Virus record (IMG/VR): IMGVR_UViG_3300009080_000001
Coordinates: 1 to 64,000 of that record
From: a virus
Length of the DNA stretch: 64,000 nt
Strand: one strand, 5' to 3'
Shown piece by piece: positions 2,519 through 54,064 of this stretch. The position numbers and the translations under genes are program-made. The notes beneath the pieces are model-generated. The model saw nothing but the letters and a program-made list of their open reading frames with translations. It did no database searches and had not been told where the DNA came from. Position 1 is the stretch's first letter. Every line of letters starts with the position of its first letter.

Positions 2519-3784
2519 TTAAGCTACTTTGATGTTGATAAGAACACAAAGAGATGCTGGTCTAGCAGTAAATAATGCTTGATCAGTGTAACATCTCATT
2601 TCGATACCATGAGCGTTCTCAAGAAGCTCTAAGTACTCTTCACCATCTGGTCTTTTGAATGTTACTTCTTCAGAACCAATTCTCTTAAGATCTTTCTCAC
2701 AAGCTAAGTAAGAGTAACCTTCTTTTACGAAAGTAGAAGCGATTACTTTGATAGATCCGTTTTGTCCGTGGAACATGATTTCTCTTGATCCATTTTCTTG
2801 TTTAGCTGGAGAATATGAGCTATCATATTGTCTCTTAGCGTCGATTTCAGTTAATAGTGAGTTCCATTGCTTAGGGTTAACATAACAAGAAACTTCTTCT
2901 TCCATTAGACCTTTCTCAACCATTGCGGCGATACCTTCTTCGATTTTACCAAAAGAAAGAACAGCAGCGTTAGTAGTTGCATCAGTTCCAACTTCTACGA
3001 TAGACCCTTGAAAAAGAGGCTCTGCAGAGTTGTTGATTCCAAATAGGCTTGATGTTTCAGTTGCGATTCCGTGAATTCCTAAAAATTCATTTCTTACACC
3101 AGCGTTAGCAGCAGCACCTTTGAAAAAGATAACGTCGTCAGCTTGAATTTCAGCAGCACCTAAGTTACCAGCAGCTTTCTTAAGAGTAACTGATCTGTCA
3201 GCTAAAGAGTAACCTTCAACTTCGTAAGAAGCTACTAAAGAACCTGCAGAGAATACTTCAACTTCTGCATTAGATGTACCATTCCAGATACCTGCAGACC
3301 ATTCAGCTTCTTGAATTGAAACTGCTTCAGATGGAGCACCACCAGTAATATCAGTCTTAACTACACCAATTCCAGATTGTCCGTAGAACATTTGTACTTC
3401 TAATCTGTGGTATACTGATTTAAGCATGTTACCTACCATAAGGTCCATTGCTTTTTCGATTGCTTGCTTGTCAGAACCTGAACGAGATAGAGCACCGATA
3501 GAGATAGCAGATCTTAATACTAATTCTCTAGCTTTGATTGAAGCTTTTCTCATTTTGAATTCTTTAACGTCGTTAAGTGTAAAAAGAGATCCATCCTCTC
3601 CACCATAAGTAAATCCTGATTCTAAAGATAGGATAACTGGTTCATTGTAGCTATCTCCTACTTTCTTAGATGTGTCAAATTTTACTGCGTTGTAAAGTTT
3701 AACATGATCAGGTACTAATTGTTGTACTTTGTCAGCGTATCTTTCCTTAAAAAGACCGTTTAGCGTTGATACTTCGTTTGCCAT
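2519..3784 (-). CDS. Major capsid protein
   Basis: 421 aa after scaffold and portal; strong RBS, own promoter motif and terminator; HK97-like C-terminus. Confidence 0.8.
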   Translation of the reverse strand: MANEVSTLNGLFKERYADKVQQLVPDHVKLYNAVKFDTSKKVGDSYNEPVILSLESGFTYGGEDGSLFTLNDVKEFKMRKASIKARELVLRSAISIGALSRSGSDKQAIEKAMDLMVGNMLKSVYHRLEVQMFYGQSGIGVVKTDITGGAPSEAVSIQEAEWSAGIWNGTSNAEVEVFSAGSLVASYEVEGYSLADRSVTLKKAAGNLGAAEIQADDVIFFKGAAANAGVRNEFLGIHGIATETSSLFGINNSAEPLFQGSIVEVGTDATTNAAVLSFGKIEEGIAAMVEKGLMEEEVSCYVNPKQWNSLLTEIDAKRQYDSSYSPAKQENGSREIMFHGQNGSIKVIASTFVKEGYSYLACEKDLKRIGSEEVTFKRPDGEEYLELLENAHGIEMRCYTDQALFTARPASLCVLINIKVA

Positions 3785-5104: not shown

Positions 5105-5425
5105 TTAGTTTTTTTCGTGTTTCTCTTGAGTATAATCTTTAGAGCAGATACCAAAAGTCCTGTCTCTAGATTCTCTTTTTAAATTTACTCCGAAAGATTC
5201 TAACTTAGATCTTGCTGTTCTTTTTAAAACATTTAGATTTGTATATTGTTTACTTTTAAAAACAAATTCTTTTGTTCTTTCGTTTCTGATACCATAGATC
5301 ATCTCTTCAAGGTTAAGTACTATTTTATATTTAGCACCAGTACGTTCTGATACATACTGGTTCAATGAAATAATGCAATTATCTTTAGTCGGATGATCGA
5401 CGTATCTAATCCTGTTTCCAGCCAT
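5105..5425 (-). CDS. Hypothetical protein
   Basis: 106 aa, coupled to portal stop. Confidence 0.6.
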   Translation of the reverse strand: MAGNRIRYVDHPTKDNCIISLNQYVSERTGAKYKIVLNLEEMIYGIRNERTKEFVFKSKQYTNLNVLKRTARSKLESFGVNLKRESRDRTFGICSKDYTQEKHEKN

Positions 5426-7533
5426 TAGCTACCGCCACTGTTCTTAGCCATAAGTTCGGCTGGATTAGTTGGCTGAGGAGGTAGTGTACCATCGCTTACT
5501 CCAGCAGGTTGAGCTGGTTGTGGTAAGTTCTGTGGTCCTAAATTAGGGTCCATCATCTGAGCTGGTCCACCATCAGGCATATTAGTTCCTGCTGGTTGTT
5601 GTGGAGCAGGAGCGTTACCTTGAGGTCCACCCGGCTGTTGCGGAGGTGGAGCTAGTGGTTGCTCTCCTATGATAGATAAAATATTCGGATCAGTAGTCTG
5701 TAATAAATTAATATGTTCTTGAATATGATCTAGTACCGATTGAACTAGTTCCGGATCTCTTCTTAGCATATAGTCAGAAAGTACTGATCTATGTTCTTTA
5801 ATATGTAATGAGTGATGGTCAGAGAATATAGCGATAACTTCTTCATCTCTTACTAGAGCTTCGTTCTCACCTTTAATAGTCATCATCTCGTCCATCTTAC
5901 CTTCAGTTAAGTAGTCAAGATTACCAGTATTCATAACCATTAAATATTTCTCAGGACTATCAATAAGTCCCATCTGTAAAAGGTTCTCTGCTACTTGAGC
6001 ACGACCTGCAGTAGTTTGCATTAATGCGTTTCCAACATCAACAACAACTCTGTTAATAGATTTAATATCGTCTGACTTAAACTCTTTCATTTCGGTCGAG
6101 TTATTTAGTCCGGAAATTGCAGCAATTCTAGGAACATTTGCAAAGTCTTTTAATAAGTTAATTAGTCCAGTTCCAACGCTTTCTAATAATTGAATATAAG
6201 ATTGCTGAAGTCCAGATACAAACTGTAATGCTTGTGACTGTACTAATGCTAATGCGTTACCTGATCTTAATGATTGTTCTGGATTACCTCTTGCAACAGA
6301 GTTTACACCAGAAAGTGTTTCCATAGTTTTCTCAAGAAGTGACATCAGTTGATATACTTCTGGAGATGTCTTTACTAAATCTAGAGGTTCTGGTTTACCC
6401 ATTCCCGGATCGTATTCAATAAAGTTCATACCTTCTGAAACCTGTTCAACAGAAACTCCGTTTCCTCTTGGGTTTAGAATGTTTACAACACCAAATGCGT
6501 TAACATTTGTTGCAGCCGTAGAATAGAGACTATTCAGCATATCTTGAAGTGGTAACAAATCAAACATGTCTGTATAGCCATATGGTGTTCCCATAATTTC
6601 ACTTGGAGTAATTCGATGCACTGGCAAGTCTCTATACGGCATTACGGTATCTTCCATGATAGCATCAGCGTCAGCATAAAGAACATAACGTCCATTAGGC
6701 ATTGACTCTGTTCGCTTATGAAAAAATTCATAAACTGGGATATCTTCGGTTTGTTCAATCGGGTGCGAAAGAACTCTCCTACTTCTTTTTTCTTGTTTAT
6801 CTTTTGTGTCTTGGCTTAACAGTTCTTCTGCAAGTTCTGGGTACTTGGCAGCTAAATCGAACTTGTTAATAAATGATCTACAAAGAACCCAATCGTTCTT
6901 CATATAATCTTCTTTCGTAACATCAAATACTACGTCAAATGGTGAGAGTAATGTAAATTCTACATCTCCTTCATAAATAGGAAAAGGTTTGAGTGTTTCA
7001 CCCTTCTCTCCTAAAGGTTCTCCGTCTTCATCATAGTCGTGGATGTCTTCTTCATCAACGTCAACATAGTCATAAATCTTGCCTTTGGTACTATTCCACT
7101 CTAATTTAATGTATCCTGAACCCAGAACAATGGCGTACTCTACGGCCTTCTTTATGATTGTCTCAAGCTTCATTTCACGCATGTAATAGTCCAGAAGTCC
7201 ATTTCCGAGTTCAGCTTGTAGTAGTGATTTTCTATCTGTATTGATAGCTCTACACTGGAAGCTAGGTCGTGTGCTTGTTACCATAACGTGAATATGTCGT
7301 GCTAAATTTCTATAGTGATTTACGGCTAAGTTTACAAGTTCACCTTGTTCTCCGCCTGTAGATAAGAAATGACCCTTACCATAGTATTGACCGTAATAAG
7401 CTTTCCAAGACCTTTTGATCTTGTCAATATAATCCGTATCCATAACACCTTTAAACCAGTGTTGTGACTTTCCGATCAATGTTTCTACGCATTTATCCGC
7501 TTTCTCAGCAGCGAAGTATTTCTCTCTACTCAT
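5425..7533 (-). CDS. Portal protein (P22-like)
   Basis: 702 aa after terminase; GSGYIKLEW, SPFDVVFD, LSGVNSVARG motifs; Pro/Gln-rich tail. Confidence 0.85.
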   Translation of the reverse strand: MSREKYFAAEKADKCVETLIGKSQHWFKGVMDTDYIDKIKRSWKAYYGQYYGKGHFLSTGGEQGELVNLAVNHYRNLARHIHVMVTSTRPSFQCRAINTDRKSLLQAELGNGLLDYYMREMKLETIIKKAVEYAIVLGSGYIKLEWNSTKGKIYDYVDVDEEDIHDYDEDGEPLGEKGETLKPFPIYEGDVEFTLLSPFDVVFDVTKEDYMKNDWVLCRSFINKFDLAAKYPELAEELLSQDTKDKQEKRSRRVLSHPIEQTEDIPVYEFFHKRTESMPNGRYVLYADADAIMEDTVMPYRDLPVHRITPSEIMGTPYGYTDMFDLLPLQDMLNSLYSTAATNVNAFGVVNILNPRGNGVSVEQVSEGMNFIEYDPGMGKPEPLDLVKTSPEVYQLMSLLEKTMETLSGVNSVARGNPEQSLRSGNALALVQSQALQFVSGLQQSYIQLLESVGTGLINLLKDFANVPRIAAISGLNNSTEMKEFKSDDIKSINRVVVDVGNALMQTTAGRAQVAENLLQMGLIDSPEKYLMVMNTGNLDYLTEGKMDEMMTIKGENEALVRDEEVIAIFSDHHSLHIKEHRSVLSDYMLRRDPELVQSVLDHIQEHINLLQTTDPNILSIIGEQPLAPPPQQPGGPQGNAPAPQQPAGTNMPDGGPAQMMDPNLGPQNLPQPAQPAGVSDGTLPPQPTNPAELMAKNSGGS

Positions 7534-8114: not shown

Positions 8115-9587
8115 CTATTTTTTTTCAAGTTTTAGCAGTTTCTTAATGAAATCAGCCGCTTGTGAGGCGTTTTTAGTCTTAAATTTAGGACTCATGAAGG
8201 TATTTTTGTTAATATCTAGTCCATAGTTCTCTGGAAACGGGTTTGTACCTAATCTTACGTTCCTAACTAAGTATATAAGCGCATCTAAAGCATCTCCATG
8301 TGATCTTAATAGTCCAGCAGAGTCGTTTCCTTTCAAATGCTTGAATTTACCTGTAAATGTTCCTTGTTTAGTATAGTGCCATTGAGTATATTTAAGATGG
8401 TATATAAGATTCTTACATCTTGGGTGTATTATGATCCTTTCAGATTCTACCCATCTTCTTACAGTATCAACAGCTTGCTCTTTATTATGTTTTTCAGTAG
8501 GCATGAAGTTCATACCATAAAACCTAGATAAATCGTTTATAAGCTTAAGGTCATTATCCATTACTCTTAAATAAGGCTTCTGCTTATCTCCGAGGGCCGT
8601 AACAAACCTCATCTCTTCTTTAACCATTATTTCTTTATGTAATTTGTCCGTTGTTAGTTCTGGACCATTAATAACGTATTCATCTGTAATTACTAGCTTA
8701 TTGAGCTTCTTATCATAGTACGAGAATAAGAATACAGTTAGATCGTGAAATCCAACATCTCCAGAGGTATAGAACTCACAATAATCTGGAACTTCCATAT
8801 CCTTAACTACGGACTCTTCTACGGCCGCAAATTCTGGGACTACGTTGGCTTCAGATACATTTGGAATCTCACACAAATACTCGCATCTAAATTTGACATT
8901 CTTCTCTCCACCCGGATACCTAGCTACAATCCTAGCTCTCTGCTCTTCAGAAACCATAGGCGATGTAGTGTAGTCAAACTTTAAAAGCTTTCCAGCAGCT
9001 TCTAGAGGGTTCACAAAGAACTCATGAAAGTCATGGTTCGGATCTTTGTCGTTTGGTGTGGATGCTAAATATATTTTACCACCAGTTGTATCGGTAGTAG
9101 GGGCAAGTACTGAATATACTACAGTCTCTAGCTCATCCATAAATCCTGCCTCATCACATATACATAAATCAGCCGATCCCCCACGGAGGTTATCGTAGTT
9201 TCCATTATCTGTACCTGCGACTTGTATTTCAGATCCATTAGGAAATAGCCACACCTTCTCTTGAGTCTTCCACTCCGGTTTCATATCCTCCGGACAGTTA
9301 GCTATGATCTCACGTATTCTAGGCTTTATAACCCTCTCAACCATTTTCTGTTGAGGACATGCATATTTTACAATAGCTCCGGGTTTTAGTAAGCAGGTTT
9401 CAATTGCCATAACACATAGAGTATACGACTTACCATACTGTCTGGATATCAGACATGCAGATATATCATCACCAGTATTGTTGAAATGTTTATAGATTTC
9501 TTTTTGATTACCCTTAAGTTTCCAAGAAAGTATACCTTCCCTCCAAAGAGCGTCAATTGCTTCTTCTTCGGTCATTTTCTTAGCCAT
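8115..9587 (-). CDS. terL: Terminase large subunit
   Basis: Walker A SRQYGKS, LRG..DLCICDEA Walker B, ASTP coupling motif, nuclease acidic residues (GDVG, DALDALIY). Confidence 0.92.
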   Translation of the reverse strand: MAKKMTEEEAIDALWREGILSWKLKGNQKEIYKHFNNTGDDISACLISRQYGKSYTLCVMAIETCLLKPGAIVKYACPQQKMVERVIKPRIREIIANCPEDMKPEWKTQEKVWLFPNGSEIQVAGTDNGNYDNLRGGSADLCICDEAGFMDELETVVYSVLAPTTDTTGGKIYLASTPNDKDPNHDFHEFFVNPLEAAGKLLKFDYTTSPMVSEEQRARIVARYPGGEKNVKFRCEYLCEIPNVSEANVVPEFAAVEESVVKDMEVPDYCEFYTSGDVGFHDLTVFLFSYYDKKLNKLVITDEYVINGPELTTDKLHKEIMVKEEMRFVTALGDKQKPYLRVMDNDLKLINDLSRFYGMNFMPTEKHNKEQAVDTVRRWVESERIIIHPRCKNLIYHLKYTQWHYTKQGTFTGKFKHLKGNDSAGLLRSHGDALDALIYLVRNVRLGTNPFPENYGLDINKNTFMSPKFKTKNASQAADFIKKLLKLEKK

Positions 9588-12720: not shown

Positions 12721-12997
12721 TAGATATCCAATAGTTAGGCGTAATAATCTCAACGTAATGATAATTAGAACAGAAGGAAATGGTGACAATTTGGACTTTA
12801 TAAGCTTTGTAGAAACTGACGATGGTATTAAATATGAAGATACAAGTGGTCATAGAATGCCTTTAAAGGATATAATTATAGAATCTAATAGCGGAACTTT
12901 TGGCCTAGAGAGCGTTGTTAAAACTAGACTAGCAGAAAAAATGTGCAAGGTACTAGGGGAAACTGAGAACTATTATATTATTAAGGGAGAGCAGTAG
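12707..12997 (+). CDS. TRLARK-box protein
   Basis: VVKTRLAEKMCK at C-terminus. Confidence 0.7.
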   Translation: MATSNRYPIVRRNNLNVMIIRTEGNGDNLDFISFVETDDGIKYEDTSGHRMPLKDIIIESNSGTFGLESVVKTRLAEKMCKVLGETENYYIIKGEQ

Positions 12998-13203
12998 TGG
13001 GAATGGGAACTATAAGAGTACCTAGAGATGAAGAAATACCTATATACAAAACGGTAAATGATACTAGGCTCGCTCGTAAAATGTTCCCGGATTTTACTGA
13101 TAATAAAGATGGAACCTTAAGAATAATAACTGGTTACGGACCGGAGCCTGTTATAGTAGGTTCAGAAAAGGGATTTACATATATAGGAACGCCAAAAAAA
13201 TGA
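12997..13203 (+). CDS. TRLARK-box protein with capsid-like peptide
   Basis: VNDTRLARKMFPD followed by EPVIVGSEKGFTYIG. Confidence 0.75.
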   Translation: MGMGTIRVPRDEEIPIYKTVNDTRLARKMFPDFTDNKDGTLRIITGYGPEPVIVGSEKGFTYIGTPKK

Positions 13204-13469
13204 GAATACCACCAAGAGCTAAGAAATCACAAGAGATTATAGACCAAATGGTTAACTGGTTGAACTATTATATGGGAACTAGGCCCGAATTTAAGGACTT
13301 TATCAGAAATGATATCAAATACTTAGAAGAATACCTATCAGAAATTAGTGAAGAGCATAAAGTTCACAATATTAGATTTGCTACTAAGTTAAAGAGTCTT
13401 TGGAAGTGGGAATTAGAGGAAAAAGAAAGAGAAATCAAGCAATTAAAGGCGGAATTGGATGAAAAATAA
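13200..13469 (+). CDS. Hypothetical protein
   Basis: Coupled ORF. Confidence 0.6.
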   Translation: MRIPPRAKKSQEIIDQMVNWLNYYMGTRPEFKDFIRNDIKYLEEYLSEISEEHKVHNIRFATKLKSLWKWELEEKEREIKQLKAELDEK

Positions 13470-13950
13470 GAAAATAGGTCAGGGATTAGGGACACAGATC
13501 GATGAAAGGTCAGGAAACGCTAGAGCTTTGGCTATGTCGCAACAATTACAGCAAATGGGAAACCTTTCTGGTCAGACACAATTAGATGTTCTTTACCAAA
13601 AAAGAATGGCTGAGTATGAGAAACAAAAAATGGAATATGAAAATCAAAAAAGACAACATGAGATGGTAAAAGAAGAAGCACTTAGTAGATTAGACGAAGT
13701 ACTAGAAAATTCTGGAATACCACTAAAAGGATCTGATTATTTTAACATATATACCGATATATTCACAGAGGTAGACGCTATAAGATGTTTTGGTAAGAAT
13801 TATAATCCTAAAGAGGTTTTTAATGAAGTATTTACAAAGTATATGAATAATAACTACGATGAAATAACAGATACTAGGCTGGCAAGAAAGATGTATCCAG
13901 ACGCTAGGCCTAATAAAGACGGTAAGTTATACGTGAAAAAGGAAAAATAG
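13459..13950 (+). CDS. TRLARK-box protein with portal-like peptide
   Basis: RSGNARALAMSQQLQ near N-terminus; ITDTRLARKMYPD at C-terminus. Confidence 0.75.
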   Translation: MKNKKIGQGLGTQIDERSGNARALAMSQQLQQMGNLSGQTQLDVLYQKRMAEYEKQKMEYENQKRQHEMVKEEALSRLDEVLENSGIPLKGSDYFNIYTDIFTEVDAIRCFGKNYNPKEVFNEVFTKYMNNNYDEITDTRLARKMYPDARPNKDGKLYVKKEK

Positions 13951-14248: not shown

Positions 14249-15055
14249 ATGATAAAAAGAGATATAAATATGTTAGAGTATCTATGTAAAGTTAGCCCAA
14301 AAGAATTTACAAGAAAAACGAGAGAAAGCGGGCCTATAAGAACATATTTCTACAGAAAATGGATATATTCTCCGATGGGAGGTTTCGAAACATGGGACAC
14401 AATGGCAGAAGTTAATCTAGAAAAATATAAAGTTACATACTATAACGGATGGGGGAAGAGGTAAATATGAAAAAATTTAAAGTATTATGGGAAGAGAGAG
14501 TTGAGAAATCTGTGTGGATTGAAGCCTCCTCTGAAAAAGATGCTGTAGAAAAACACAATGAAGGCGAATATAGTAATGACTCAGTAAATGAAGAGTGGTT
14601 AGGATTCGACGACTCTTACGTTGTAGATAGCAAGGATATAGAATAATGTTCGACTATATGGTAAAAGTACTGCCGAACGGTAACTTATTAGTGCGTGACA
14701 GCCATTCTAAGACATCCGAGGCTATTAAGGCAAGTGAGATATCGGATTATTTCCAAAAGGCTTTAAAAGAGCAATTAGAGGCTGAGAAAGAGAATGACCA
14801 GAAACATAAGGATGTTCGAGAGGGAGCCTTTAAATTATGAAAAGAATAGAAAAAATGATGACATACAGGAATGATCCGTATTCTAATAATATAATAGAAG
14901 ACGATTATCAGTTAGTAGGTATAGATTATATAGTCTCTGCTTGGAATTGGGACCACTCTAAATCAAACGACGAATATTACTGTGTAAAATTAGCTCATTT
15001 TGGAAGTATTGTCCACATAAAGAAGGAAGACCTAGATAAAAAGGTAAAAAAATGA
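14249..15055 (+). CDS. Four small hypothetical ORFs (14249-14464, 14467-14646, 14646-14840, 14837-15055)
   Basis: Tightly coupled ORFs with RBSs. Confidence 0.55.
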
Positions 15056-15381
15056 ATAAAACATATACAAGAATGCAAAAACAAGTAGTTAACGACACTA
15101 GGTTAGCTAGGAAGATGTATCCAGACTTCACTGATAATGAGGATGGTACTATCACAATTGAGGTTGAAGTAATCTCAGACGGATTCGGGTCTGGTGGTAT
15201 ATTGACTGCTACAGACGTACAAGATGCAATAAATGATATGCTGACCAAAGGCTTTGCTGCGCCATCAGAAATCATAGTAAACCCTAAACAATACGCAGAG
15301 TTACAGAAGTTAATAGATCCAGATGACATGGATATTAAGGTTAGTAACTACTGTCCTGATGACAAGGTATATATAAAATAG
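15052..15381 (+). CDS. TRLARK-box protein with capsid-like fragment
   Basis: N-terminal VNDTRLARKMYPD; IVNPKQYAELQKLID. Confidence 0.75.
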   Translation: MNKTYTRMQKQVVNDTRLARKMYPDFTDNEDGTITIEVEVISDGFGSGGILTATDVQDAINDMLTKGFAAPSEIIVNPKQYAELQKLIDPDDMDIKVSNYCPDDKVYIK

Positions 15382-23656: not shown

Positions 23657-25558
23657 ATGAAATTGACTACTGATAACAAAACTGAAGACTTTGGACACAA
23701 GAAATTTAAGTTCAAGATCGACGAGAAACATGCCTTTAAAGCTATATGGGCATTGATTAATCTATATAAGTATAAGATCCAAACTCCAGTTCAAGAGGTT
23801 ATATCGAACGCTAGGGATGCCCACAGAGAAGTAGGCAAGCCAGATCATACTTTTGATATAAAGGTAACAGATACAGAGTTTATCGTTAGAGACTACGGTA
23901 GTGGTATTGATCCAGTAAAGGCTGAGAATATTTTTTGCTCTATTGGCGAGAGTACTAAGACAGGCGATAACGGTCAGACAGGCGGATTCGGTATTGGTGC
24001 AAAAAGTCCTCTAGCATACACTAAACAGTTTGAAATGATTAGTTATGTAGACGGTACTAAGTATCATTACTTCATTGCTAAAAATGGTGAAATGTTAGAT
24101 ATGAACTTAATCAGCACAGAGAGTACTAAAGCTAAAAACGGTACTAAGGTTATTATCCCTATTAAACAAAATACAGGATACTACAGAAACGAGTCTGATA
24201 AAAAGAGTTTTATTAAAGCAGTTGATAGGTGTTGTTATTTTTGGGAAAATAGACCTAATTTTAACCACGAAATAGAGCCTCTAAAGCTGTTTAAAATAAA
24301 AGGTAAGTCTAACTATGCGTTTCATAATGCAAACATCGTAGACGGCAATCTCGTAGTTGTGGACGGTATCCCTTATAATGCTAATACTAATCAATGGAAC
24401 TATAGCGGAAGTAGAGTAGCATTTTTCAATACTGGGGACTTAAGGATTCATGAGACTAGAGAAAGATTAGCAGATAATCCAGACGATAGTGCTTATAATA
24501 TGGATAAAGTTAATGAAGCAATGGATTATATTAAAAACCATATGGACGTTAAACTTAATGATTATATTGATAAAGATAGTATCTTTAAAAGTCTTAAAGT
24601 ATTAAGTGATTTTGCTATACCTTTTAATTATAGACATGGTAACTATCGGTTTAAAAACAGATTCATTGAGCTAGAGGGGTATGGTAAAAAATTCACTGTA
24701 TATACTTCTAAATCAGGTGGTAGGTATCCATATAATTATAGATATAGAAAAGAAGATCAAAGTAGACTGAACTATAATGTCGAGGTATTTTATGATAATA
24801 CCGGAGATAGTGTTCAAAAAGTTAGTCGTAGAGTAAAAGGTTACTTAACACAATTTGTTGAGAATAAAGAGAATAAAACTGTATATGTTACTACTAATAA
24901 ACAGATAGCTAATATTTTCGGAGCAAAAGACTTAAGTACTTTAGAAGTGCCGAAAGTTAATAGAACTGGAGTTAAAAAACAAAATGAGCAGATAACTATT
25001 ACAGAATTATATTGTTATGGTCAGAGTAGAATATATAAAAAACTTGATGATATTGTTAGTAAGTATATTTATTTAGGATTTAAAGAAGATATTAGTGAAA
25101 CAATGAGATCTTTTTTAGATAGAAAAGGATATAGAGTCTGTAAACTTTCAAAAGATAATATTGAAAAAGTTACAGGGCATGGAAAATTTACAGAGTATCA
25201 TAATTTTGTTGAAAATTACAAATTGACTCAAGATGAAATAGACGGTATTTATTATTCAAGTATCAGGAGATATAACTTTAATGTAAATTTTACAGAGTTA
25301 CTTGACAGTAAAATAAAAAGATACAAAGAAATTGCAGATCAATATAAAAGATGCGACAGTTATGGTGTGCCAGTTTCTCTTTATACAAAAGAAGTTGAGG
25401 CTACTATAGAAAAAATAAGTGCTGAGAACGCTGAGATTATCCATATAAAGGATTATATTAGCGGAGAGTACCCTATGTTAGGTCACGGCAAAGACGTTAA
25501 TACGGAGTATATCAACGCCATTTACAGCTATAGGAAAAATTTACATGGTGAAAAATAA
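23657..25558 (+). CDS. rIIA-like protein with HSP90/GHKL ATPase domain
   Basis: EVISNARDAH, DYGSGI, GGFGIGAKSP. Confidence 0.8.
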   Translation: MKLTTDNKTEDFGHKKFKFKIDEKHAFKAIWALINLYKYKIQTPVQEVISNARDAHREVGKPDHTFDIKVTDTEFIVRDYGSGIDPVKAENIFCSIGESTKTGDNGQTGGFGIGAKSPLAYTKQFEMISYVDGTKYHYFIAKNGEMLDMNLISTESTKAKNGTKVIIPIKQNTGYYRNESDKKSFIKAVDRCCYFWENRPNFNHEIEPLKLFKIKGKSNYAFHNANIVDGNLVVVDGIPYNANTNQWNYSGSRVAFFNTGDLRIHETRERLADNPDDSAYNMDKVNEAMDYIKNHMDVKLNDYIDKDSIFKSLKVLSDFAIPFNYRHGNYRFKNRFIELEGYGKKFTVYTSKSGGRYPYNYRYRKEDQSRLNYNVEVFYDNTGDSVQKVSRRVKGYLTQFVENKENKTVYVTTNKQIANIFGAKDLSTLEVPKVNRTGVKKQNEQITITELYCYGQSRIYKKLDDIVSKYIYLGFKEDISETMRSFLDRKGYRVCKLSKDNIEKVTGHGKFTEYHNFVENYKLTQDEIDGIYYSSIRRYNFNVNFTELLDSKIKRYKEIADQYKRCDSYGVPVSLYTKEVEATIEKISAENAEIIHIKDYISGEYPMLGHGKDVNTEYINAIYSYRKNLHGEK

Positions 25559-25636
25559 ATGTTGCGTAGAGTTAAAAAGTAGAGTATATTAATTATAGAA
25601 ACTAAGTTGTTCTTAACAAACAGGAGGATAGAACAT

Positions 25637-26818
25637 ATGAAACTAACACAAATACCACAAGCCGCAAAGGTTTGTTTCAAGAGTAAAGCAGCTACATTAT
25701 GCCTAGTAGGAGTATCTGGATCTGGTAAGACAAGTATCTGGGGACAAACTTATAAGGAACTAGGATTTGAAAATTATATTATCCTAAGACCTGCATTACT
25801 AGCTGATGCAGCAGATTTAATCGGTCTACCTGACTTTGAGATTATCGAGAAAGGTGGTAAGGCAGTTAAGACTACTGCATTTATGCGACCTAAATGGCTA
25901 CCTTTTGAAGGTGATAATTGTTTGATTGTTATTGATGAGATTAACAGAGCAACTAAGGACGTATCAAACGCATTGTTTGGACTGATTGAGTCGGAAGCCC
26001 CATTCATTGGTGAGTATAAACTTCCCGAAGGTTGTAAGGTAGTAGCAACGTGTAATCCGCCTACGGATAACTATGCAGGAGTACTAGACTTTGCAGATAG
26101 TGCATGGAGTTCAAGACTTAACTTTGTTAAGGTTGCACCAAGCTTAGAAACGTATACAAACTACGGTAGAGCTTCGGAAACTGTTAGTAACGTGATGTTA
26201 GACTTCCTAAATAAGAATGAAACTTTCTTTGGAACTAGCGGAGACTTTGATACTGATATGTTTTTTACAGACGATAGTGAAGTTAAAGAGACTAATACAA
26301 GATCATTCTCAAAGGCATCGGCTATTCACGATACTGCTAAAGAGTTAGGCGTTGATAGAAATGTTACTTTTGAGTTAATAAAAGGAGTCGTTGGTACGGA
26401 ATTTGCAACAGCATTTTTAAACTTTGCTGATACTTATAGTAATATCGTAACAGTTGATGATCTACTTACAGATCCAGAGGCGCATACTAGATTCGATTAT
26501 ACGGCTCTCAGTGGTATCGCTAAGGTACTTCAAGACCTTAAGCATAAGTTAGGTAAGGGCGAAGTTGAAGAGGCTCAGATCCCGAATATAGCCCCTTTCC
26601 TTAAGCAGATCCCATTAGATACTCTTAAGGGATTTGTAGTGTACTTAGTAAAGGAAAATAAGGACGAGAATGGTGCTTTAATGACGACATTCGCAGAAGC
26701 TTTAATTGACGATGATGAGATTAACGAGAAGTTAGACCTAGTTATGTCAGATGAAAGTACTGAGGAGCTTATTGATTCTGACGAATCTGGAGAGGAGTCT
26801 GAAAATGAAGATAACTAA
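25637..26818 (+). CDS. MoxR-like AAA+ ATPase
   Basis: GVSGSGKT, IVIDEINR, ATCNP, SRL arginine finger. Confidence 0.85.
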   Translation: MKLTQIPQAAKVCFKSKAATLCLVGVSGSGKTSIWGQTYKELGFENYIILRPALLADAADLIGLPDFEIIEKGGKAVKTTAFMRPKWLPFEGDNCLIVIDEINRATKDVSNALFGLIESEAPFIGEYKLPEGCKVVATCNPPTDNYAGVLDFADSAWSSRLNFVKVAPSLETYTNYGRASETVSNVMLDFLNKNETFFGTSGDFDTDMFFTDDSEVKETNTRSFSKASAIHDTAKELGVDRNVTFELIKGVVGTEFATAFLNFADTYSNIVTVDDLLTDPEAHTRFDYTALSGIAKVLQDLKHKLGKGEVEEAQIPNIAPFLKQIPLDTLKGFVVYLVKENKDENGALMTTFAEALIDDDEINEKLDLVMSDESTEELIDSDESGEESENEDN

Positions 26819-27053
26819 GACTGTAAATATTACACGGTATAACCATAATCGAAAGTTATATGCTAAAAAAGGTGAGATAAGTGATAATGGTCATTATGTA
26901 TCATTATCTGACTTAGAAGTTGAGATTAAGAAAGGTAATACAATAAACGTAACAGATGAGTTTGGAAATAATATGACTAACAAAGTACTACAAGGTATTG
27001 TTAGTAAAATGCAATTGAGTGACAGTGAGTTAGTGAAGTTAATTAAAGGTTAA
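26805..27053 (+). CDS. PhaR N-terminal-like DNA-binding protein
   Basis: ITRYNHNRKLY...YVSLSDL...GNNMTNKVLQGIV resembles the PhaR IKKYxNRRLY pattern. Confidence 0.6.
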   Translation: MKITKTVNITRYNHNRKLYAKKGEISDNGHYVSLSDLEVEIKKGNTINVTDEFGNNMTNKVLQGIVSKMQLSDSELVKLIKG

Positions 27054-27191
27054 TTCCTAGACCTAGCACAAGTCTTAAAACTGAATTTAGTCCAGTGACC
27101 AGACCGACGATAAACAGAGGAATTTCTTATGGGAGCTACGTTATTGGTCAATCCTGAGTATGATTTGAAACTGCTCTTTTTGGAGATAAAA

Positions 27192-27647
27192 ATGAAATAT
27201 AACAGCATGAAAAAACAAGCATTTAAAGATTGGAAACGAGGTACTAAAACTCCGCAATGGGCAAAGATAAATAAAAGGAAAAGAATATATGAACCAGAAT
27301 ATTACACAACCCTGAATAATTTACAGGGTACGTTGAATTTCCTTGACCATAAGTTTGATAAATGTAATTTAGAGAATCTTGGTAATTATATTTATGAGAT
27401 AAAAGATATTATAAAACCTAGACATATAGATAAAGAAGATTATTCAATGCAATATCAGATATATAATAGTGGTATATGGAATGTTTTTAGTAGTTACTAT
27501 AAGGACAAGACAGGTTACGGAGTACACTGGAAATTAGAGGAAGTTAACTATTCAAGATTAGCTGAGAAAATGTATAAGATAACAGAGAAAAATAAGTTAA
27601 AATGTTTAGGAGGAGTAAGGTGGTTAGTGTGGGTAAAAATTACATAG
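27192..27647 (+). CDS. TRLARK-box protein (divergent)
   Basis: VNYSRLAEKMYK; start revised by RBS. Confidence 0.6.
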   Translation: MKYNSMKKQAFKDWKRGTKTPQWAKINKRKRIYEPEYYTTLNNLQGTLNFLDHKFDKCNLENLGNYIYEIKDIIKPRHIDKEDYSMQYQIYNSGIWNVFSSYYKDKTGYGVHWKLEEVNYSRLAEKMYKITEKNKLKCLGGVRWLVWVKIT

Positions 27648-27728
27648 TGGTTGACAAATGATTTGCGTTATACTGTTACCTGTGTTATTATTAATTGTAC
27701 TTAAGTTATCGTATGGAGGATAAATAAA

Positions 27729-28976
27729 ATGAGTGAAGAAAAGAAACAACCAACAGCATTAGAAGTAGCACAAGGTAGAACTAGAATCGAGTTATTACTT
27801 ACGAAGTTATATAACCACCCGACAGATAGATTCTATGCACATTTATTCTTCCATGTAGATAGAAGAGTAGATAACGCAACGTGTCCAACAATGGGAGTTG
27901 GCATGAAAGGCGGAAGGATTCAGATGGTATATAATACTGAGTTCATTAAGCAATATAGTGACGAGGTTATTACTGAGATTCTTAAGCATGAATGTATGCA
28001 CCTTATTAACGATCATATTAGTAGAGGTAGAGGTGCTAAAGAGAAGAATATGACTAAGCACAAGATGGAAAATATTGCCCAAGATTGTGCTATTAATCAA
28101 TCGTTAAATGGTGCAATTATCAAGGAAATTGGTGGTGTAGATTTAGATAGCTTTAGGAAGCTCTTAACGCATCAACCAGAGGACTTTATACTTGAGGCAG
28201 GTATGACCTCAGATTATTATTATAAGCTCTTAGAACAGGAAAAGCAGGATCGTGAGGATGCAGGAGAAGGCGACCAAGAGCAAGGTGAAGGATCACTAGG
28301 TCAACAGCTAGGTGACTTAGAAATGGACGATCATGGTCAATTTGGAGAAATGGACGCATTAGATCAAGCTATGTTAGACGAAAAGATTAAGCAAGCTGCT
28401 GAGGACGCTAGAGCTAGTGGAGCAGGAAACCTACCAAGTGAAGTAGAGGAAATGTTAAAGCTTAGAAAGAAACCTAAAGAGAATTGGAAGAGGTTACTTA
28501 GACAATTTATTGGTGGTGGTGTTAGGTCTGATAAAAAGAAAACAAGAAGTAAACGTAATAGACGTTACGGGATTAAGTTTTCAGGAAACAAAAAGGACTA
28601 TGTTGCAAGGATATTAGTAGTACTAGATACATCAGGAAGTATGTACGGTGATAGAACTGACAAGGTACTGAATGAAATTTACGGTATCTGGAAAGCTAAC
28701 CCATCAACTAAGCTCGACATTGTTGAGTGTGATGCTCAGATCCAAGACGTATTTGAGTACGATGGTAAGGACAAATTTGCCATTACAGGGCGTGGAGGAA
28801 CTAACATGACTCCTGCATTAGAGTATGCTGATAAACACAAGTACGACGGTGTTATAATGCTTACAGACGGTGAATTTTGGGAGACTTTCAAGAATCATAA
28901 GACTCCTAGTTTATGGGTAATTGCAGGTAATCCAAGTTATACGTCGCCAATTGGTAAGACGGTACATTTAAAGTAG
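27729..28976 (+). CDS. Metallopeptidase-like + VWA domain protein (DUF2201 type)
   Basis: HECMH zinc motif; DTSGS MIDAS; GRGGT; LTDG. Confidence 0.85.
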   Translation: MSEEKKQPTALEVAQGRTRIELLLTKLYNHPTDRFYAHLFFHVDRRVDNATCPTMGVGMKGGRIQMVYNTEFIKQYSDEVITEILKHECMHLINDHISRGRGAKEKNMTKHKMENIAQDCAINQSLNGAIIKEIGGVDLDSFRKLLTHQPEDFILEAGMTSDYYYKLLEQEKQDREDAGEGDQEQGEGSLGQQLGDLEMDDHGQFGEMDALDQAMLDEKIKQAAEDARASGAGNLPSEVEEMLKLRKKPKENWKRLLRQFIGGGVRSDKKKTRSKRNRRYGIKFSGNKKDYVARILVVLDTSGSMYGDRTDKVLNEIYGIWKANPSTKLDIVECDAQIQDVFEYDGKDKFAITGRGGTNMTPALEYADKHKYDGVIMLTDGEFWETFKNHKTPSLWVIAGNPSYTSPIGKTVHLK

Positions 28977-41582: not shown

Positions 41583-43955
41583 GTGAAAGAACGTAAACTA
41601 GTAATAGTTGATAATATAAAGAAATTAGCAGAAGCTATAACACATATAAATACTTACGATATATTAGCATACGATATAGAAACTACTGGACTTATTCCTA
41701 CTAAGGAAAAGGTTATAGGGTTCTCAGTATGCGGTAAAGTAGGTGAAGCATATTATATTCCACATTTAACTTGGGATACTACCAAAAATAAACTAGTCGA
41801 AGTATTCAGCTTCAGTAAAATATCCTCCATTTTAAATTCGTTAAAAGGTAAAGAGTTACTGATGTGGAACGGTAGTTTCGACGTTAGATTCACCAGAGAT
41901 TATTTCGATATAGACCTTACAGAAGAATTATTCGCAGATATTATGTTAATGAAACATACAGTAGAAGAAGAGGGTCAATTTAGCTTAAAAGGCTGTGCAA
42001 TCCAGTACCAAGAAGAGATTGGACTAGATGTAGCAGAAGACGCTAACAAAGAGCAGATAGCCTTAAAAGAGAACGTAGCTAAGAATGGCGGTACAACTAC
42101 TAGAGCTAAGTACGAGATGTATAAGGCTGATCTAGACGTTATGGGTGTGTATGCCGCAGCCGATGCAGACCTTACATTAAGACTTGCAAACCTATTCAGA
42201 GAAAAGCTTGAAAAAGAGGAATTAGAGGACTTCTTTTATGATGAAGAAGTTATGCCTTTATATAAGTATGTAACAATGACAATGGAATCTAATCCAGTAC
42301 AATTAGATATTGATAAACTTAAATACTACAAACATAAGATAGAGCAAGATATAGTTAAATTACATGATGCTATTGTTGCAGACTTATTAACAAGCGTTAA
42401 AGTACAAGCATGGTTAGAAGAAGTAGCTAAGACTAAATATCCGCCAAAACCTACTGGAAACTACGCTCAAAGAGTGGTAGAGAAATTCGGACTAGATTTA
42501 CCAAAATCAGCATCAGGGAAGTACAGTATTTCCAGAAAGAATGTTGAGAAATTACCAGATAGTGACGCTAAAAGCTTCTTATTAAAAGAGAGTAATATAG
42601 AGCCGGAATTTAAGGTAAAAGATACAAGGTTAGCACGTAAGATGTATCCGGGCTGTGTAGAGAAAGATGGTTGGTTAGTACCTGCTCAAGATATGTCAAG
42701 TATTTCAGTTGAATTATGGGAAGAACATAATGGTGGTAAAATCAATATCTCATCTAAAAAGCAAATGGGTGAAATAGTATTTAATTACATGAAAGTTAAG
42801 CCTTTAACTAAGACCTTAAAAGGTGCGCCACAATTTAACGATGCTTTAATTCAATATTTAGCTGATAATCAGTTTTCTTGGGCTAATGACCTTAGTGACT
42901 ACAATAAGCTAATTAAGATCAAGTCAGCATATATCGATAGATTCTTGGATAATAACCAAGATGGTAATTATTACTTTTATTACAAACAACATGGAACATT
43001 ATCAGGACGATATAGTTCTGACGCACAGCAGCTACCAAGACCTAAAGAAGATGGAGAACTATCACCATTAGTACTTGAATATAACAATGCTATTAGGTCG
43101 TTCTTTGTCGCTGGTGAAGGTCGTAAGTTTATTGATGCCGATTATGAGTCGTTAGAGCCACATGTATTTGCACATGTATCAGGTGATGATGGGTTGAGAA
43201 ATATCTTCCGTAAAGGTCATGATTTTTATAGTACTATTGCTATTCAAACAGAGAAGCTTGGGGAATTTAGTGCGGATAAGAAGTCCGAAAGTTACCTTGG
43301 GAAATTAAACAAACCATTACGCCAGAAGGCTAAGGCTTATAGTCTAGGCGTTCCATATGGCATGACACCTTATGCCCTAGCTAAGACATTAGAAGTGGAT
43401 GAGAAGGAAGCTAAGAAGCTATATGATGGGTATTTAGACGGGTTTCCAGAGCTTAAGAAGTGGATGCAGAAGAGTAAGAGAGATGCACAGTACAAAGGAT
43501 TCGTTAAGACGCAAACTGGACGTATTAGGCACTTAGATAGGGTTAAAGAGCTACATGCTGAACATGGTGAGAAATTACTTAATTTTAAATACCGTAAAAA
43601 GCTTGAAAAACAAGTAGCTAAGAAACTTGGTGGATTTGAAGCATCTAAAGAAGTTAAAGGTATGTACCTTGATTATAAGAATGGTATAAATAATAGCCGC
43701 AACTTTCAGATTCAAGGATTATCGGCTAGTATTGTAAATAAATCCATGATACTGATTATGCAGGATTTTAGGGACGAGAATATAGACGGTTACGTATGTG
43801 CAACAGTACATGATCAGATTATTGTTAACGTATCTGATTTAGATCTTGACAGAGCTATAGAAATAGTGCAATATAGAATGACAACGGTTGTTGAGCTATC
43901 AGTTGATCTGAAAGCTCCGCCAGAAATTAGCGATAATTTTAGAGATGGACATTAA
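41583..43955 (+). CDS. polA: DNA polymerase family A with 3'-5' exonuclease and internal TRLARK box
   Basis: DIETTG exo I; SGRYSS; DADYESLE motif A; KAKAYSLGVPYG motif B; HDQ motif C. Confidence 0.95.
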   Translation: MKERKLVIVDNIKKLAEAITHINTYDILAYDIETTGLIPTKEKVIGFSVCGKVGEAYYIPHLTWDTTKNKLVEVFSFSKISSILNSLKGKELLMWNGSFDVRFTRDYFDIDLTEELFADIMLMKHTVEEEGQFSLKGCAIQYQEEIGLDVAEDANKEQIALKENVAKNGGTTTRAKYEMYKADLDVMGVYAAADADLTLRLANLFREKLEKEELEDFFYDEEVMPLYKYVTMTMESNPVQLDIDKLKYYKHKIEQDIVKLHDAIVADLLTSVKVQAWLEEVAKTKYPPKPTGNYAQRVVEKFGLDLPKSASGKYSISRKNVEKLPDSDAKSFLLKESNIEPEFKVKDTRLARKMYPGCVEKDGWLVPAQDMSSISVELWEEHNGGKINISSKKQMGEIVFNYMKVKPLTKTLKGAPQFNDALIQYLADNQFSWANDLSDYNKLIKIKSAYIDRFLDNNQDGNYYFYYKQHGTLSGRYSSDAQQLPRPKEDGELSPLVLEYNNAIRSFFVAGEGRKFIDADYESLEPHVFAHVSGDDGLRNIFRKGHDFYSTIAIQTEKLGEFSADKKSESYLGKLNKPLRQKAKAYSLGVPYGMTPYALAKTLEVDEKEAKKLYDGYLDGFPELKKWMQKSKRDAQYKGFVKTQTGRIRHLDRVKELHAEHGEKLLNFKYRKKLEKQVAKKLGGFEASKEVKGMYLDYKNGINNSRNFQIQGLSASIVNKSMILIMQDFRDENIDGYVCATVHDQIIVNVSDLDLDRAIEIVQYRMTTVVELSVDLKAPPEISDNFRDGH

Positions 43956-48112: not shown

Positions 48113-48303
48113 TATGTTATTGTCTATACGGGACGATATCTATACTTACAGTAATTGTCCCGAAGAAGAAATAGATAAATTAGCCAACATTATACTTAAA
48201 AATATCGAGGATTATGGGATGAAACCTCCCGGAAGATGGTCCTCAGTACTAAGAGGGAATACTGCTAAAAGAGAGATAGCGAGATGTTCGTGGGAGGATG
48301 AAG

Positions 48304-48870
48304 ATGAGTAAAGATACTTTTAAAGAAAACTTGGAAATGTTCCACTCTAGTAATATACATATACCTTCAAGAAGTATATTATTATCTGGAGAAATTACAG
48401 TAGAAAAAAGAGATGAGTTTCTAAAGAATATATTAACACTTGATGAAAAGGGTCACGATATTATAGTATACCTATCTAGTGAAGGTGGTTACACAGATCA
48501 AGGTAAGTCGATATATGACTTGATTAAAACTAGAGATTCTAATATAAAAGGTATAGTACTAGATGAAGCTAGTTCAAGTGCAAGTTTTATACTCCAAGCT
48601 TGTGACGAAAGGATTATGTTTCCAAATAGTTACTTAATGGTACATATTGGAGAAGAGGCTACAGGTGGACATCCTAACACTAAGAAAGCTTGGGATAAGA
48701 AGTATGAAGAAGATACAAAGATAATGGAAGATATGTATTTAAAGAGGATTAAAGAAAAAAAACCAAGATATACAAGAAAACAGTTGCAAAACATGTTAAC
48801 TTTTGATACTATCTTGAATCCTAAGAAAGCAATTGAGCTTGGATTAGCAGATAAGGTATATGGTGATTAA
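48304..48870 (+). CDS. ClpP-like protease
   Basis: LSSEGG, ASSSAS (Ser), LMVH (His), AIELGLAD. Confidence 0.85.
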   Translation: MSKDTFKENLEMFHSSNIHIPSRSILLSGEITVEKRDEFLKNILTLDEKGHDIIVYLSSEGGYTDQGKSIYDLIKTRDSNIKGIVLDEASSSASFILQACDERIMFPNSYLMVHIGEEATGGHPNTKKAWDKKYEEDTKIMEDMYLKRIKEKKPRYTRKQLQNMLTFDTILNPKKAIELGLADKVYGD

Positions 48871-51966: not shown

Positions 51967-52401
51967 GTGAGTAAAAAAATATACAATAAATTAGTTAGAA
52001 GTGAAATACCGACTATTATCAGAGAAAGCGGTAAAGAGTGTATGTACGGTAAATTAAATTTAGAAAATAATAAAGATGAGATTATAAAATTACTAAAAGA
52101 GAAGTTAGTTGAAGAAGCTAGAGAAGTAATAGAAACATTACATAAAGGCGATTTACTAGAGGAATTAGGTGATTTAGAAAATGTAATATATAGTCTAAAA
52201 AAAGTGTTACGTGTAGAAAATGATGAGGTAAGAACCTTATCTAATGCTAAAACTATAAAAAAAGGTAATCTTGGTTCAATAATGTTAGATTCAAAAGGTC
52301 AATATATTCCTTTAAAAAATGCTAAAAGTAGACATGATGTTAATTACGAATTTATTAAACTAATATCGGTAGAGGACAATGGACAAGAAACTAAGGACTA
52401 G
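51967..52401 (+). CDS. MazG-like / PRA-PH nucleotide pyrophosphohydrolase
   Basis: YNKLVR..IP.II; KLVEEA.E; EELGDL. Confidence 0.8.
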   Translation: MSKKIYNKLVRSEIPTIIRESGKECMYGKLNLENNKDEIIKLLKEKLVEEAREVIETLHKGDLLEELGDLENVIYSLKKVLRVENDEVRTLSNAKTIKKGNLGSIMLDSKGQYIPLKNAKSRHDVNYEFIKLISVEDNGQETKD

Positions 52402-52792
52402 AGTTACTAATTTAATGCGTAGAGACTTGAAAAAGACTACCATGTATAGTAATGCTAAAAAGAGACATTTCAAAGGTAAGACTGTGTATTACTGTCCTAT
52501 CTGTACTAAACACTTCTACACAGGAGCTTCTGAGAAGAACTTTGAAGCACTTAAAGAAACATACGAGGATTTAGTTAGGTGTAAGGAGAAAGAGTTCCAC
52601 ATGGATCATGTAGAGCCTCTGACACCATATGACAAAGAGTTCCATGATATGAATTTAGATGAAATAGCTGATAGAAATTACTGTAAAGAAGATAATCTAC
52701 AGTACATATGTCATGTTTGTCATAAAGAGAAAACATCTAAAGAGAGTACTATTAGAAGTAAATATAAGAAGTTAAAGAAAATGGAGGAATAA
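52379..52792 (+). CDS. HNH endonuclease-like protein
   Basis: CPIC; MDHVEP; NLQYICHVCHKEKT. Confidence 0.75.
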   Translation: MDKKLRTRVTNLMRRDLKKTTMYSNAKKRHFKGKTVYYCPICTKHFYTGASEKNFEALKETYEDLVRCKEKEFHMDHVEPLTPYDKEFHDMNLDEIADRNYCKEDNLQYICHVCHKEKTSKESTIRSKYKKLKKMEE

Positions 52793-53018
52793 TGGATACT
52801 ACGTTATTAATATATTGTGTTATATCATTCATAGGTACAGTGTTGCACGGTTTTTATACTGAATATTTTAAATATGATAAAGCAACTTTAACTATTTTAG
52901 AAATTATACAGATATTTGTTTGTGGTTTTATGGGGCCTGTAATTTTTCCGATTATGTTATTTTTTTGGATAATAAATAGGGACTTTTGGAATAAAGAAGT
53001 ATTCAAAAAAGGTGAAGA

Positions 53019-53243
53019 ATGATCGGTTGGAAAAACGTAAAAGATACAAGATTAGCTAGAAAGATGTTCCCTGACTTTAAAGAGTCCGAAAAAGACGGGT
53101 ATATTATGATCCCAGAACCTATAGATTTAACTAATACTACGTTTGCTGAAAGAGCACATATAGCTGAACAATTGTTACAATACGGACTTATTACTACAAA
53201 AGAAGAATATTTAAAAATAATTGATAATATCCAACAAAAGTAG
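53019..53243 (+). CDS. TRLARK-box protein with portal-like fragment
   Basis: N-terminal VKDTRLARKMFPDF; AERAHIAEQLLQYGLI. Confidence 0.75.
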   Translation: MIGWKNVKDTRLARKMFPDFKESEKDGYIMIPEPIDLTNTTFAERAHIAEQLLQYGLITTKEEYLKIIDNIQQK

Positions 53244-53299
53244 TTGACAGGGTTTTCTAAATAGATTATATTTAAGACTAATCTATTAAAGGAGAATTA

Positions 53300-54064
53300 A
53301 TGAAGAAACTACTTTTAGCAATTATGCTACTACCAACACTGGCATTCGCCAATCTAAACACAATCAAACTTACTGATAAAAACACTATCAGTTTCAACGA
53401 ACAATTCAATGCAATGACTGTTGCAGCAAAACAAGCACAATTATTCGAATTAGCATCTAGTTCACAAGAAAAGGACTTATATATAGTTATGTATACTCCC
53501 GGTGGCTCAGTATCTGCTGGAGCTTTATTTATCGATACAGCAAGAGCATTAGGTAAGAACATTCACACAATCACTATTTTCAGCGCATCTATGGGCTACC
53601 ACACCGTTCAAGGACTTGGCAAGAGGTATATTCTACCATCTGGGGTTCTAATGTCTCACAGAGCTTATGTAAGCGGATTACAGGGTCAATTTCCGGGTGA
53701 ACTAAATCAAAGAGTTGAGATGCTTATGAAGTCTACTGAAGACCTTGATAAGATTGCTGCTGCTAGAGTTGGTTTAAGTCTTAAGGAATACAAATCTACT
53801 ATTCACGATGAACTATGGTTAACTGGTGCTGATGCTGTTAAAAGAGGTCATGCTGATGAAGTTGTACAAGCTATCTGTGGAGAAAGTCTAAGTGGATTAT
53901 ACGAGAAAGTATTTAACACATTCTTTGGACCAGTTATTGTTGAATTTGCTAATTGTCCATTAATTGTAGGACCAGTTAATATCAAAGGATCAAACGAAGC
54001 AATTATGGAAGTTAAAAAGAACATCCTAGACGATGTAACTAAAAAGGTTAAAACACTACTATAA
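53300..54064 (+). CDS. ClpP-like protease with signal peptide
   Basis: MKKLLLAIMLLPTLAFA; TPGGSV, SASMG, LMSH; TTGACA at 53245. Confidence 0.8.
   Translation: MKKLLLAIMLLPTLAFANLNTIKLTDKNTISFNEQFNAMTVAAKQAQLFELASSSQEKDLYIVMYTPGGSVSAGALFIDTARALGKNIHTITIFSASMGYHTVQGLGKRYILPSGVLMSHRAYVSGLQGQFPGELNQRVEMLMKSTEDLDKIAAARVGLSLKEYKSTIHDELWLTGADAVKRGHADEVVQAICGESLSGLYEKVFNTFFGPVIVEFANCPLIVGPVNIKGSNEAIMEVKKNILDDVTKKVKTLL

Follow-up and report, generated by a model that had tools for sequence, protein, structure and literature searches.

The genome analysed here, of an uncultured marine phage, encodes a 74-aa protein that joins a box, found in many other small proteins of the same phage, to a tail resembling a short and highly conserved segment of its own portal protein. 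The likeness of the tail to the portal is kept at the protein level, and small proteins in which the same box is followed by a fragment of a virion protein recur in this phage and its relatives. On sequence grounds, the 74-aa protein seems to be a molecular mimic, of a type so far undescribed in phages.

Genome setting and anatomy of the gene

The source record is 84,758 bp long, with 123-bp terminal repeats and a GC content of 34%, and its first 64 kb (64,000 nucleotides) form the window analysed here. Virion genes, including a scaffold gene, are encoded on the minus strand at both flanks of the record, and replication genes, together with many small genes, occupy a central plus-strand arm (11.7-55.3 kb). 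The 74-aa gene sits among small genes at the end of this arm, adjoining the virion arm. The features concerned are as follows.

2519-3784, minus strand: major capsid protein (MCP)
8115-9587, minus strand: large terminase
52379-52792, plus strand: HNH endonuclease gene, two genes upstream of the 74-aa gene
52792-53022, plus strand: 76-aa protein with two hydrophobic spans, its stop overlapping the start of the 74-aa gene
53019-53243, plus strand: gene of the two-module 74-aa protein, stop codon included (open reading frame, translation signals, orthologues)
53019-53117, plus strand: TRLARK box module of the N-terminal subtype, residues 1-33 (BLASTP, AF2, signature)
53118-53138, plus strand: linker PIDLTNT, residues 34-40 (weakly like portal residues 497-506, with a 3-residue gap, by BLASTP)
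53139-53225, plus strand: portal-like helix-turn-helix, residues 41-69 (BLASTP, profile, shuffle, AF2)
53244-53272, plus strand: sigma-70-like promoter site TTGACA-17-TATATT (11/12, the best site in 51.5-55.5 kb)
53300-54064, plus strand: protease of the ClpP family, N-terminal Sec-type signal MKKLLLAIMLLPTLAFA/N (Pfam CLP_protease 5e-19, NCBIfam ClpP)

The open reading frame of 74 aa is present on the plus strand as the first-pass annotation had claimed, and it is a real gene. A GGTG Shine-Dalgarno-like motif lies 5 nt 5' of the start codon, which shares an ATGA overlap with the stop of the preceding gene. Both halves of the protein are kept in nine other lineages, with identities falling to about 40%: six orthologues (69-93% identity) and three that are more divergent (P0018, P0040 and P0130). 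The latter retain the box and a portal-like hairpin, the best match of which is the same portal segment. No polymorphism was seen in the open reading frame, contigs from four marine runs being identical across it, and DNA near-identical to this phage occurs in several marine metagenomes. Longer or fused forms of the protein were searched for and none was found.

The AF2 model of the protein (pLDDT 76) predicts a box made up of a strand (residues 3-8), a helix (11-16) and a second strand (28-33), and a tail made up of two helices (42-54 and 61-69). Foldseek searches of this model against PDB and BFVD gave no significant match; the BFVD row of highest probability was a podovirus portal, but at E 0.43 it is not counted as evidence. 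The full portal architecture of clip, stem, wing and crown (about 600-700 aa) is absent from the protein, as is any Pfam portal domain. No match to an anti-defence or defence family was found in PADLOC, Pfam, PHROG or NCBIfam, a weak negative as PADLOC holds defence proteins only.

Among the neighbours, the 76-aa upstream protein has no family match in Pfam, PHROG or NCBIfam. A 315-nt contig from one marine run departs from the window at 48 positions within the HNH gene (52473-52787), and the contigs on either side of it are identical to the window, which suggests that this population includes a divergent HNH allele. The ClpP-like gene lies 56 nt downstream, so the adjacency reported earlier stands, but a functional tie is doubtful because the gene has its own promoter-like site and export signal, and the proximity is probably incidental. 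Its Sec signal ends in AFA/N. A second ClpP-family gene (48298-48870, plus strand), apparently cytosolic with no obvious signal, lies among box genes, and both ClpP-family genes are outside the head module. A cluster at 23657-28976 (plus strand) encodes an HSP90/GHKL-type ATPase (633 aa), a MoxR-like AAA_5 ATPase (403 aa) and a DUF2201 VWA and metallopeptidase protein (415 aa), and the first run of C-terminal-box genes begins directly after it, at 28986.

Similarity of the tail to the portal protein

The portal gene and the segment that is resembled by the tail are located as follows.

5425-7533, minus strand: portal gene, 702 aa, P22-like (Pfam P22_portal 2e-13, PHROG 156 2.5e-26)
5929-6042, minus strand: copied portal segment, residues 498-535 (BLASTP, hhalign)

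The earlier report of 15 identical residues out of 25, without gaps, between the tail and the portal from residue 507 (6015..5941, minus strand) is exact in both count and placement. BLASTP widens the match to 17/38, aligning residues 35-69 with portal residues 498-535 at a pairwise E of 1e-7, and when the 74-aa protein was compared with all 315 open reading frames of the window the portal was matched at E 5e-6. The Smith-Waterman score of the tail against the portal is 73, and none of 400 shuffles reached it (mean 37.9 ± 3.5, maximum 55), the null being the best score over all 73 proteins of at least 100 aa. Alignment of a seven-orthologue profile with the portal-family profile by hhalign gave a probability of 94.5% and an E of 8e-8, over 29 columns only. 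Searched against six-frame translations of five related phage records, the orthologue profile matched portals solely, at the same segment and with E about 2e-6 each, and residues 41-69 match the portals of this phage and of more than 100 family members. The best matches are thus portals and not other helical domains, SHOCT_2 reaching 14 bits and the portals of five genomes 23-24 bits each. Judged from these comparisons, the likeness is of homology grade, far above chance and specific to portals, and the description of the protein as a box plus a portal-derived segment is supported.

The first-pass annotation called this the second portal fragment of the phage. Its portal likeness is upheld, but the supposed first fragment, in the product of 13459-13950 (plus strand), is borderline. 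Residues 16-45 of that protein, with RSGNARALAMSQQLQ, resemble the invariant portal motif RSGNALALVQSQALQ (portal residues 422-436, within a compared region of 422-450), and 14 of 400 shuffles did as well.

At the DNA level the tail and the portal segment share 51 of 87 nucleotides (59%). The same codon is used for only 6 of the 15 identical residues, arginine for example being AGA in one and CGT in the other, and leucine TTG and CTT. The likeness is therefore old and maintained on the protein, since codons have diverged while residues stay; it is kept at the protein level and not the DNA level, and it is not a recent DNA duplication. A recombination cassette or a DGR template for the portal gene was rejected on the same low DNA identity (51/87 nt, 6/15 codons). 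The tail differs from the portal at T508F, G510E, N517Q and M521Y, positions that are invariant or nearly so in the portal family, and so it is not a faithful copy of an epitope. The polar portal residues R511 and Q520 are also kept in the tail orthologues.

The copied portal segment

The nearest named relative of the portal is that of a Silvanigrella phage (28.5% identity), and searches of the portal against PDB with phmmer and hmmsearch gave no match. The copied segment is the most invariant stretch of the portal, nearly unchanged among 98 distinct variants. The AF2 model of the portal is too poor for mapping of the fold (pLDDT 37); its secondary structure places helices at 508-520 and 527-536 directly after a long helix (425-465), and tail helices 42-54 and 61-69 correspond to these two.

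The position of the segment within the portal was interpolated from Pfam PF16510 coordinates. Residues 71-503 of the phage's own portal align with model positions 48-495, family member P0249 reaches residue 519 on position 514, and P22 gp1 aligns over residues 13-625 with positions 2-594. By this approximate mapping, the copied segment would correspond to about residues 528-556 of P22 gp1, where the crown (525-600) begins. The P22 crown has a flexible hinge to the wing, and in the procapsid state the hammer loop grips it (PMC5290284).

Four sister portals (P0175, P0176, P0244 and P0255) contain inteins of roughly 340-420 aa with homing-endonuclease domains. These portals are 1026-1040 aa in length, apart from P0244, which is a 582-aa partial sequence. 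P0244 provides the single fully resolved N-terminal junction, with the intein lying between Q506 and T507 (...GNALMQ/CLAKGT...THN/TTAGRAQ..., slashes marking the junctions), and the C-terminal junction ...THN/[TS]TAGRAQ is common to all four. The helix that the tail copies has its first residue at this insertion point.

The TRLARK box family

The box reported earlier is confirmed, at residues 4-33 of the 74-aa protein, by the profile V-[KN]-[DN]-T-R-L-A-R-K-M-[YF]-P ... D-G-x-L-x-I. It is 80% identical to the C-terminal box of ORF 41308 (BLASTP E 4e-10), and the divergent relative P0018 scores 56 bits with the box profile. The phage has 27 in-frame copies between 12.9 and 55.3 kb, all in one frame and on the plus strand. 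An exhaustive profile search gave 239 clusters at E<=1e-3, and the shared box thus defines a large uncharacterised family of protein tags in marine phages. IMG/VR yielded no further box-bearing contig, a metagenome scan gave one box-only locus, and the one match in a GTDB scan, on a Rhodobacteraceae chromosome, was in the wrong frame and spurious.

In most members the box is C-terminal. Among the matches listed, 142 representatives contain TRLARK; 13-23 residues follow the motif in 130 of them and at least 35 residues in the other 12, ten of which are small proteins with the box at the N-terminus. The 74-aa protein has 59 residues after the motif and hence falls outside the extreme C-terminal type. 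The signature P[DENK][FH]..DG[TYF] is found in 11 of 16 N-type boxes compared with 17 of 153 C-type boxes, and the 74-aa box carries it as PDF..DGY. This shared signature suggests one scaffold with exchanged tails and not repeated invention. The earlier proposal that the architecture arose or moved more than once is thus only partly retained: repeated origin is unlikely, while movement fits a single scaffold.

Third codon positions of the box vary freely, so it is a peptide module; a DNA-level repeat or promoter was rejected on this ground and because the 27 copies share one frame and one strand. Many box proteins are paralogous over 50-110 residues (for example 29308/31367/55026, 29589/33455 and 45547/48860, all within 28986-55325 on the plus strand), so the box is the best-conserved end of a larger multi-copy family of small proteins. 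The box proteins can accordingly be described as such a family rather than as unrelated proteins bearing a tag. No relatives of the box were found in Pfam. Its net charge is about +1.4 and the pI of box proteins ranges from 4.4 to 9.8, and there is hence no clear DNA-binding signature.

The box is also found inside the family-A DNA polymerase (41583-43955, plus strand) at residues 339-367. It ends two residues before the Pfam DNA_pol_A match (residue 369 on model position 13), and thus lies at the junction of exonuclease and polymerase or at the very start of the thumb. The N-terminus of the 219-aa protein P0024, from a relative, resembles T4 endonuclease V (pyrimidine-dimer glycosylase), by eye only; an SH3-like stretch comes next, and a TRLARK box closes the protein. 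DNA-repair enzymes may thus carry the box as well.

Phages with portals 58-90% identical to that of this phage have no box, no homologue of the 74-aa protein and no related polymerase. The 74-aa gene is therefore accessory, and is tied to this plus-strand arm.

Other box proteins with virion-like tails

The combination of an N-type box with a virion-protein fragment, as proposed from the first reading of the sequence, is real and recurrent, as seen from shuffle tests and from relatives found by profile. Two siblings of the 74-aa protein are encoded in the window.

12997-13203, plus strand: N-type box protein with a capsid E-loop-like tail (Smith-Waterman 50, null 34 ± 3.3, 0/100)
15052-15381, plus strand: N-type box protein with a capsid A-domain-like tail, VNPKQ (Smith-Waterman 58, null 43.8 ± 4.1, 1/100)

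Relatives of the first type (P0054 and P0057) are 65-78% identical to capsid residues 43-62, which we take, from our reading of the HK97 fold, to be the E-loop strand. For the second type, P0023 matches capsid residues 263-315 at E 0.003. The ten N-type representatives among the matches listed comprise three with portal-like tails, three that copy MCP residues 43-62, two that copy the VNPKQ region of the MCP, and two whose tails we group with a domain found in a pair of large virion proteins; one of these tails matches it at E 0.006-0.02, and for the other no match was significant. A virion-protein match at E<0.05 was obtained for 7 of the 10.

Residues 53-89 of the 15052-15381 product also match weakly the family-1 encapsulin shell (NF041155, E 0.019), which is consistent with copying of an HK97-fold A-domain motif. 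The two large virion-arm proteins are encoded outside the window on the minus strand (81077-83179 and 83206-84708 of the record), are paralogous (39% identical over 509 aa) and both carry the phrog_15750 domain, which the N-type tail of P0136 weakly resembles (E 0.006-0.02).

Possible functions of the 74-aa protein

We tentatively favour, at low confidence, a role for the 74-aa protein as a trans-acting bait or decoy for a non-self factor that recognises the invariant portal element. The TRLARK box of 33 residues, predicted to be beta-alpha-beta, is a module common to about 27 proteins of the phage, and the C-terminal 30-35 residues are an old copy, under protein-level selection, of what would be the first two crown helices of the phage's own portal. 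The hairpin would show a portal surface (R45/R511, Q54/Q520, E62/E528, Y64/Y530 and the hydrophobic core) to the recognising factor, most probably a host immunity protein that senses portals, or else a factor of a competitor, and the box would link this factor, once captured, to any partner common to the box proteins. A motif that the phage cannot alter to escape would be a plausible target for such a sensor.

We prefer this explanation because the gene is accessory in its distribution, because the motif copied is the least mutable one, and because capsid and fibre have been copied in parallel. In this phage and its relatives, N-type boxes of the same kind carry copies of two capsid motifs and a fibre-like domain, and the 74-aa gene lies in the non-structural plus-strand arm among small genes. 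Sensors triggered by virion proteins include Avs4 (portal), CapRel and Lit, which responds to the Gol peptide of T4 gp23. PMC13017515 describes the portal as a trigger of RAZR, a bacterial immune sensor. A peptide of T4 gp20 (288-311) binds the terminase gp17 and inhibits packaging (cited in PMC4493910), so short portal peptides can act in trans. Against a bait, the tail departs from the portal at the four invariant or nearly invariant positions given above, one made early could equally trigger the sensor as block it, and no published phage precedent was found in the literature. The presence of the box in the DNA polymerase and on a putative repair enzyme of a relative also fits a general docking tag and not an anti-defence device.

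An extended form of the bait proposal, which we think rather improbable, would make the N-type TRLARK proteins a set of baits with tags. Their invariant epitopes (portal crown hairpin, capsid E-loop strand, capsid A-domain motif and fibre domain) would each capture the matching pattern-recognition sensor of the host before the late proteins appear, and the box would hand the sensor to a common phage machine, for which the phage's own cytosolic ClpP or the HSP90-like/MoxR/VWA-metallopeptidase cluster are candidates.

A regulator directed at the phage itself is possible, at low probability. The hairpin would dock on the phage's own portal subunits, or on a phage protein that contacts the wing-crown hinge, and so modulate assembly or packaging; its partners might be neighbouring crown subunits, an equivalent of the hammer loop or internal core proteins, and it could act by holding, capping or timing either the assembly of the portal or the packaging switch, with the capsid- and fibre-fragment siblings acting likewise on their parent proteins. 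The copied elements would be contact-forming parts of the particle, if the assignments hold (portal 508-536 being in the crown by the Pfam mapping, and capsid 43-62 an E-loop strand by our reading of the HK97 fold), the P22 crown is gripped in the procapsid state (PMC5290284), and the T4 peptide that binds terminase blocks packaging (PMC4493910). The 74-aa gene also borders the virion arm, and its translation is coupled to that of a small membrane protein. Phages of the same portal family, however, assemble without the 74-aa gene, so its product is not a core assembly factor, and a common tag for portal, capsid and fibre assembly is hard to see. It is also possible, at a similarly low probability, that the tail came from a portal, or converged on one, and now serves as a generic SHOCT-type element for oligomerisation or stability with no role at the portal. 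The SHOCT pattern is present in its second half, where Pfam SHOCT_2 matches weakly (E 0.059), a SHOCT protein is among the weak BFVD structure matches, and the residues common to tail and portal are mostly those of the hydrophobic core. The SHOCT_2 score is nevertheless below threshold (14 compared with 24 bits), most of the score comes from a first helix that is specific to portals (T-x-A-x-R-A-x-[IV]-A-E-x-L-L-Q-x-G), the polar residues R511 and Q520 are kept as well, and the capsid and fibre copies on the same box subtype are left unexplained by a generic hairpin.

Two further origins are less likely. Repeated box sequences could promote rearrangements and related phages lack the gene, as might be expected of a non-functional relic of illegitimate recombination between a portal gene and a box gene, but we regard this as very unlikely: the frame is intact, both halves are conserved to about 40% identity across lineages, an identical sequence occurs in several marine samples, and the divergence of codons while residues stay points to long purifying selection. 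Least probable of all, and largely refuted, is a product of intein homing, in which the N-terminal 39 residues would be the C-fragment of a split intein, or the gene a by-product of homing between Q506 and T507. The copy does begin where sister portals have their intein inserted, the sequence ...LTN/TT... at its start is like an intein end with a +1 Thr, and an HNH endonuclease gene lies two genes upstream. The would-be terminal Asn at position 39 varies, however, being N, G, D, A or K in orthologues and distant members, the DNA identity to the portal is only 59%, and the same box forms the very C-terminus of about 90% of family members. Pfam finds no intein blocks, and with residue 39 variable a split-intein C-fragment was rejected.

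If the N-type mini-proteins are baits, they would form a new class of phage counter-defence, and because each copied motif marks an epitope they would give a sequence-based read-out of the portal and capsid epitopes recognised by bacterial sensors. If they act on the phage itself, they would be natural regulators that control the assembly of portal and capsid in trans. On either reading, the peptides that were copied indicate which surfaces of virion proteins are functionally critical.

Comparison with known systems

We know of no phage-encoded free copy of a virion segment that is recognised by a sensor, and the published analogues (the Bodo saltans virus fusions and the T4 gp20 peptide) are conceptual only. 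The crown of P22-like portals (P22 gp1 525-600; PF16510) has the same helix-turn-helix secondary structure as residues 41-69 of the 74-aa protein. The copy, however, is a piece of 30-35 residues, lacks clip, stem and wing and cannot be a portal, and it is joined to an unrelated module and encoded in a non-structural arm. The SHOCT domain (PF20612/PF09851) is, like the tail, a short helix-turn-helix with G-[LI]-I-T-x-x-E-[YF], and matches weakly at residues 47-74, but the match is below the gathering score, and the portal is favoured by the first helix as well as by the score overall.

The likeness to immunity triggers such as RAZR with portal rings is conceptual: conserved pieces of portal or capsid are recognised by sensors (for RAZR, PMC13017515), but those systems consist of host sensors and full-length phage proteins. 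T4 gp20 288-311 offers a parallel in that a partner of the portal can be bound in trans by a fragment of about 24 residues (cited in PMC4493910). It differs in being a laboratory peptide with no natural gene, and it derives from the clip domain, a different portal region with a different partner.

Bodo saltans virus encodes ankyrin-repeat ORFs carrying 5' fragments of essential viral genes, which have been proposed to be decoys that trap host antiviral factors (Deeg et al. 2018, PMC5871332). Both viruses attach a module of a multi-copy family to pieces of their own essential proteins. Bodo saltans virus is a giant virus of a eukaryote, its module is the ankyrin repeat, and its fragments are of catalytic domains (polymerase, MutS) and arose from recent DNA duplications. 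In the phage, by contrast, the module is a 30-residue beta-alpha-beta tag and the fragments are old, protein-level copies of virion proteins, the function being putative in both.
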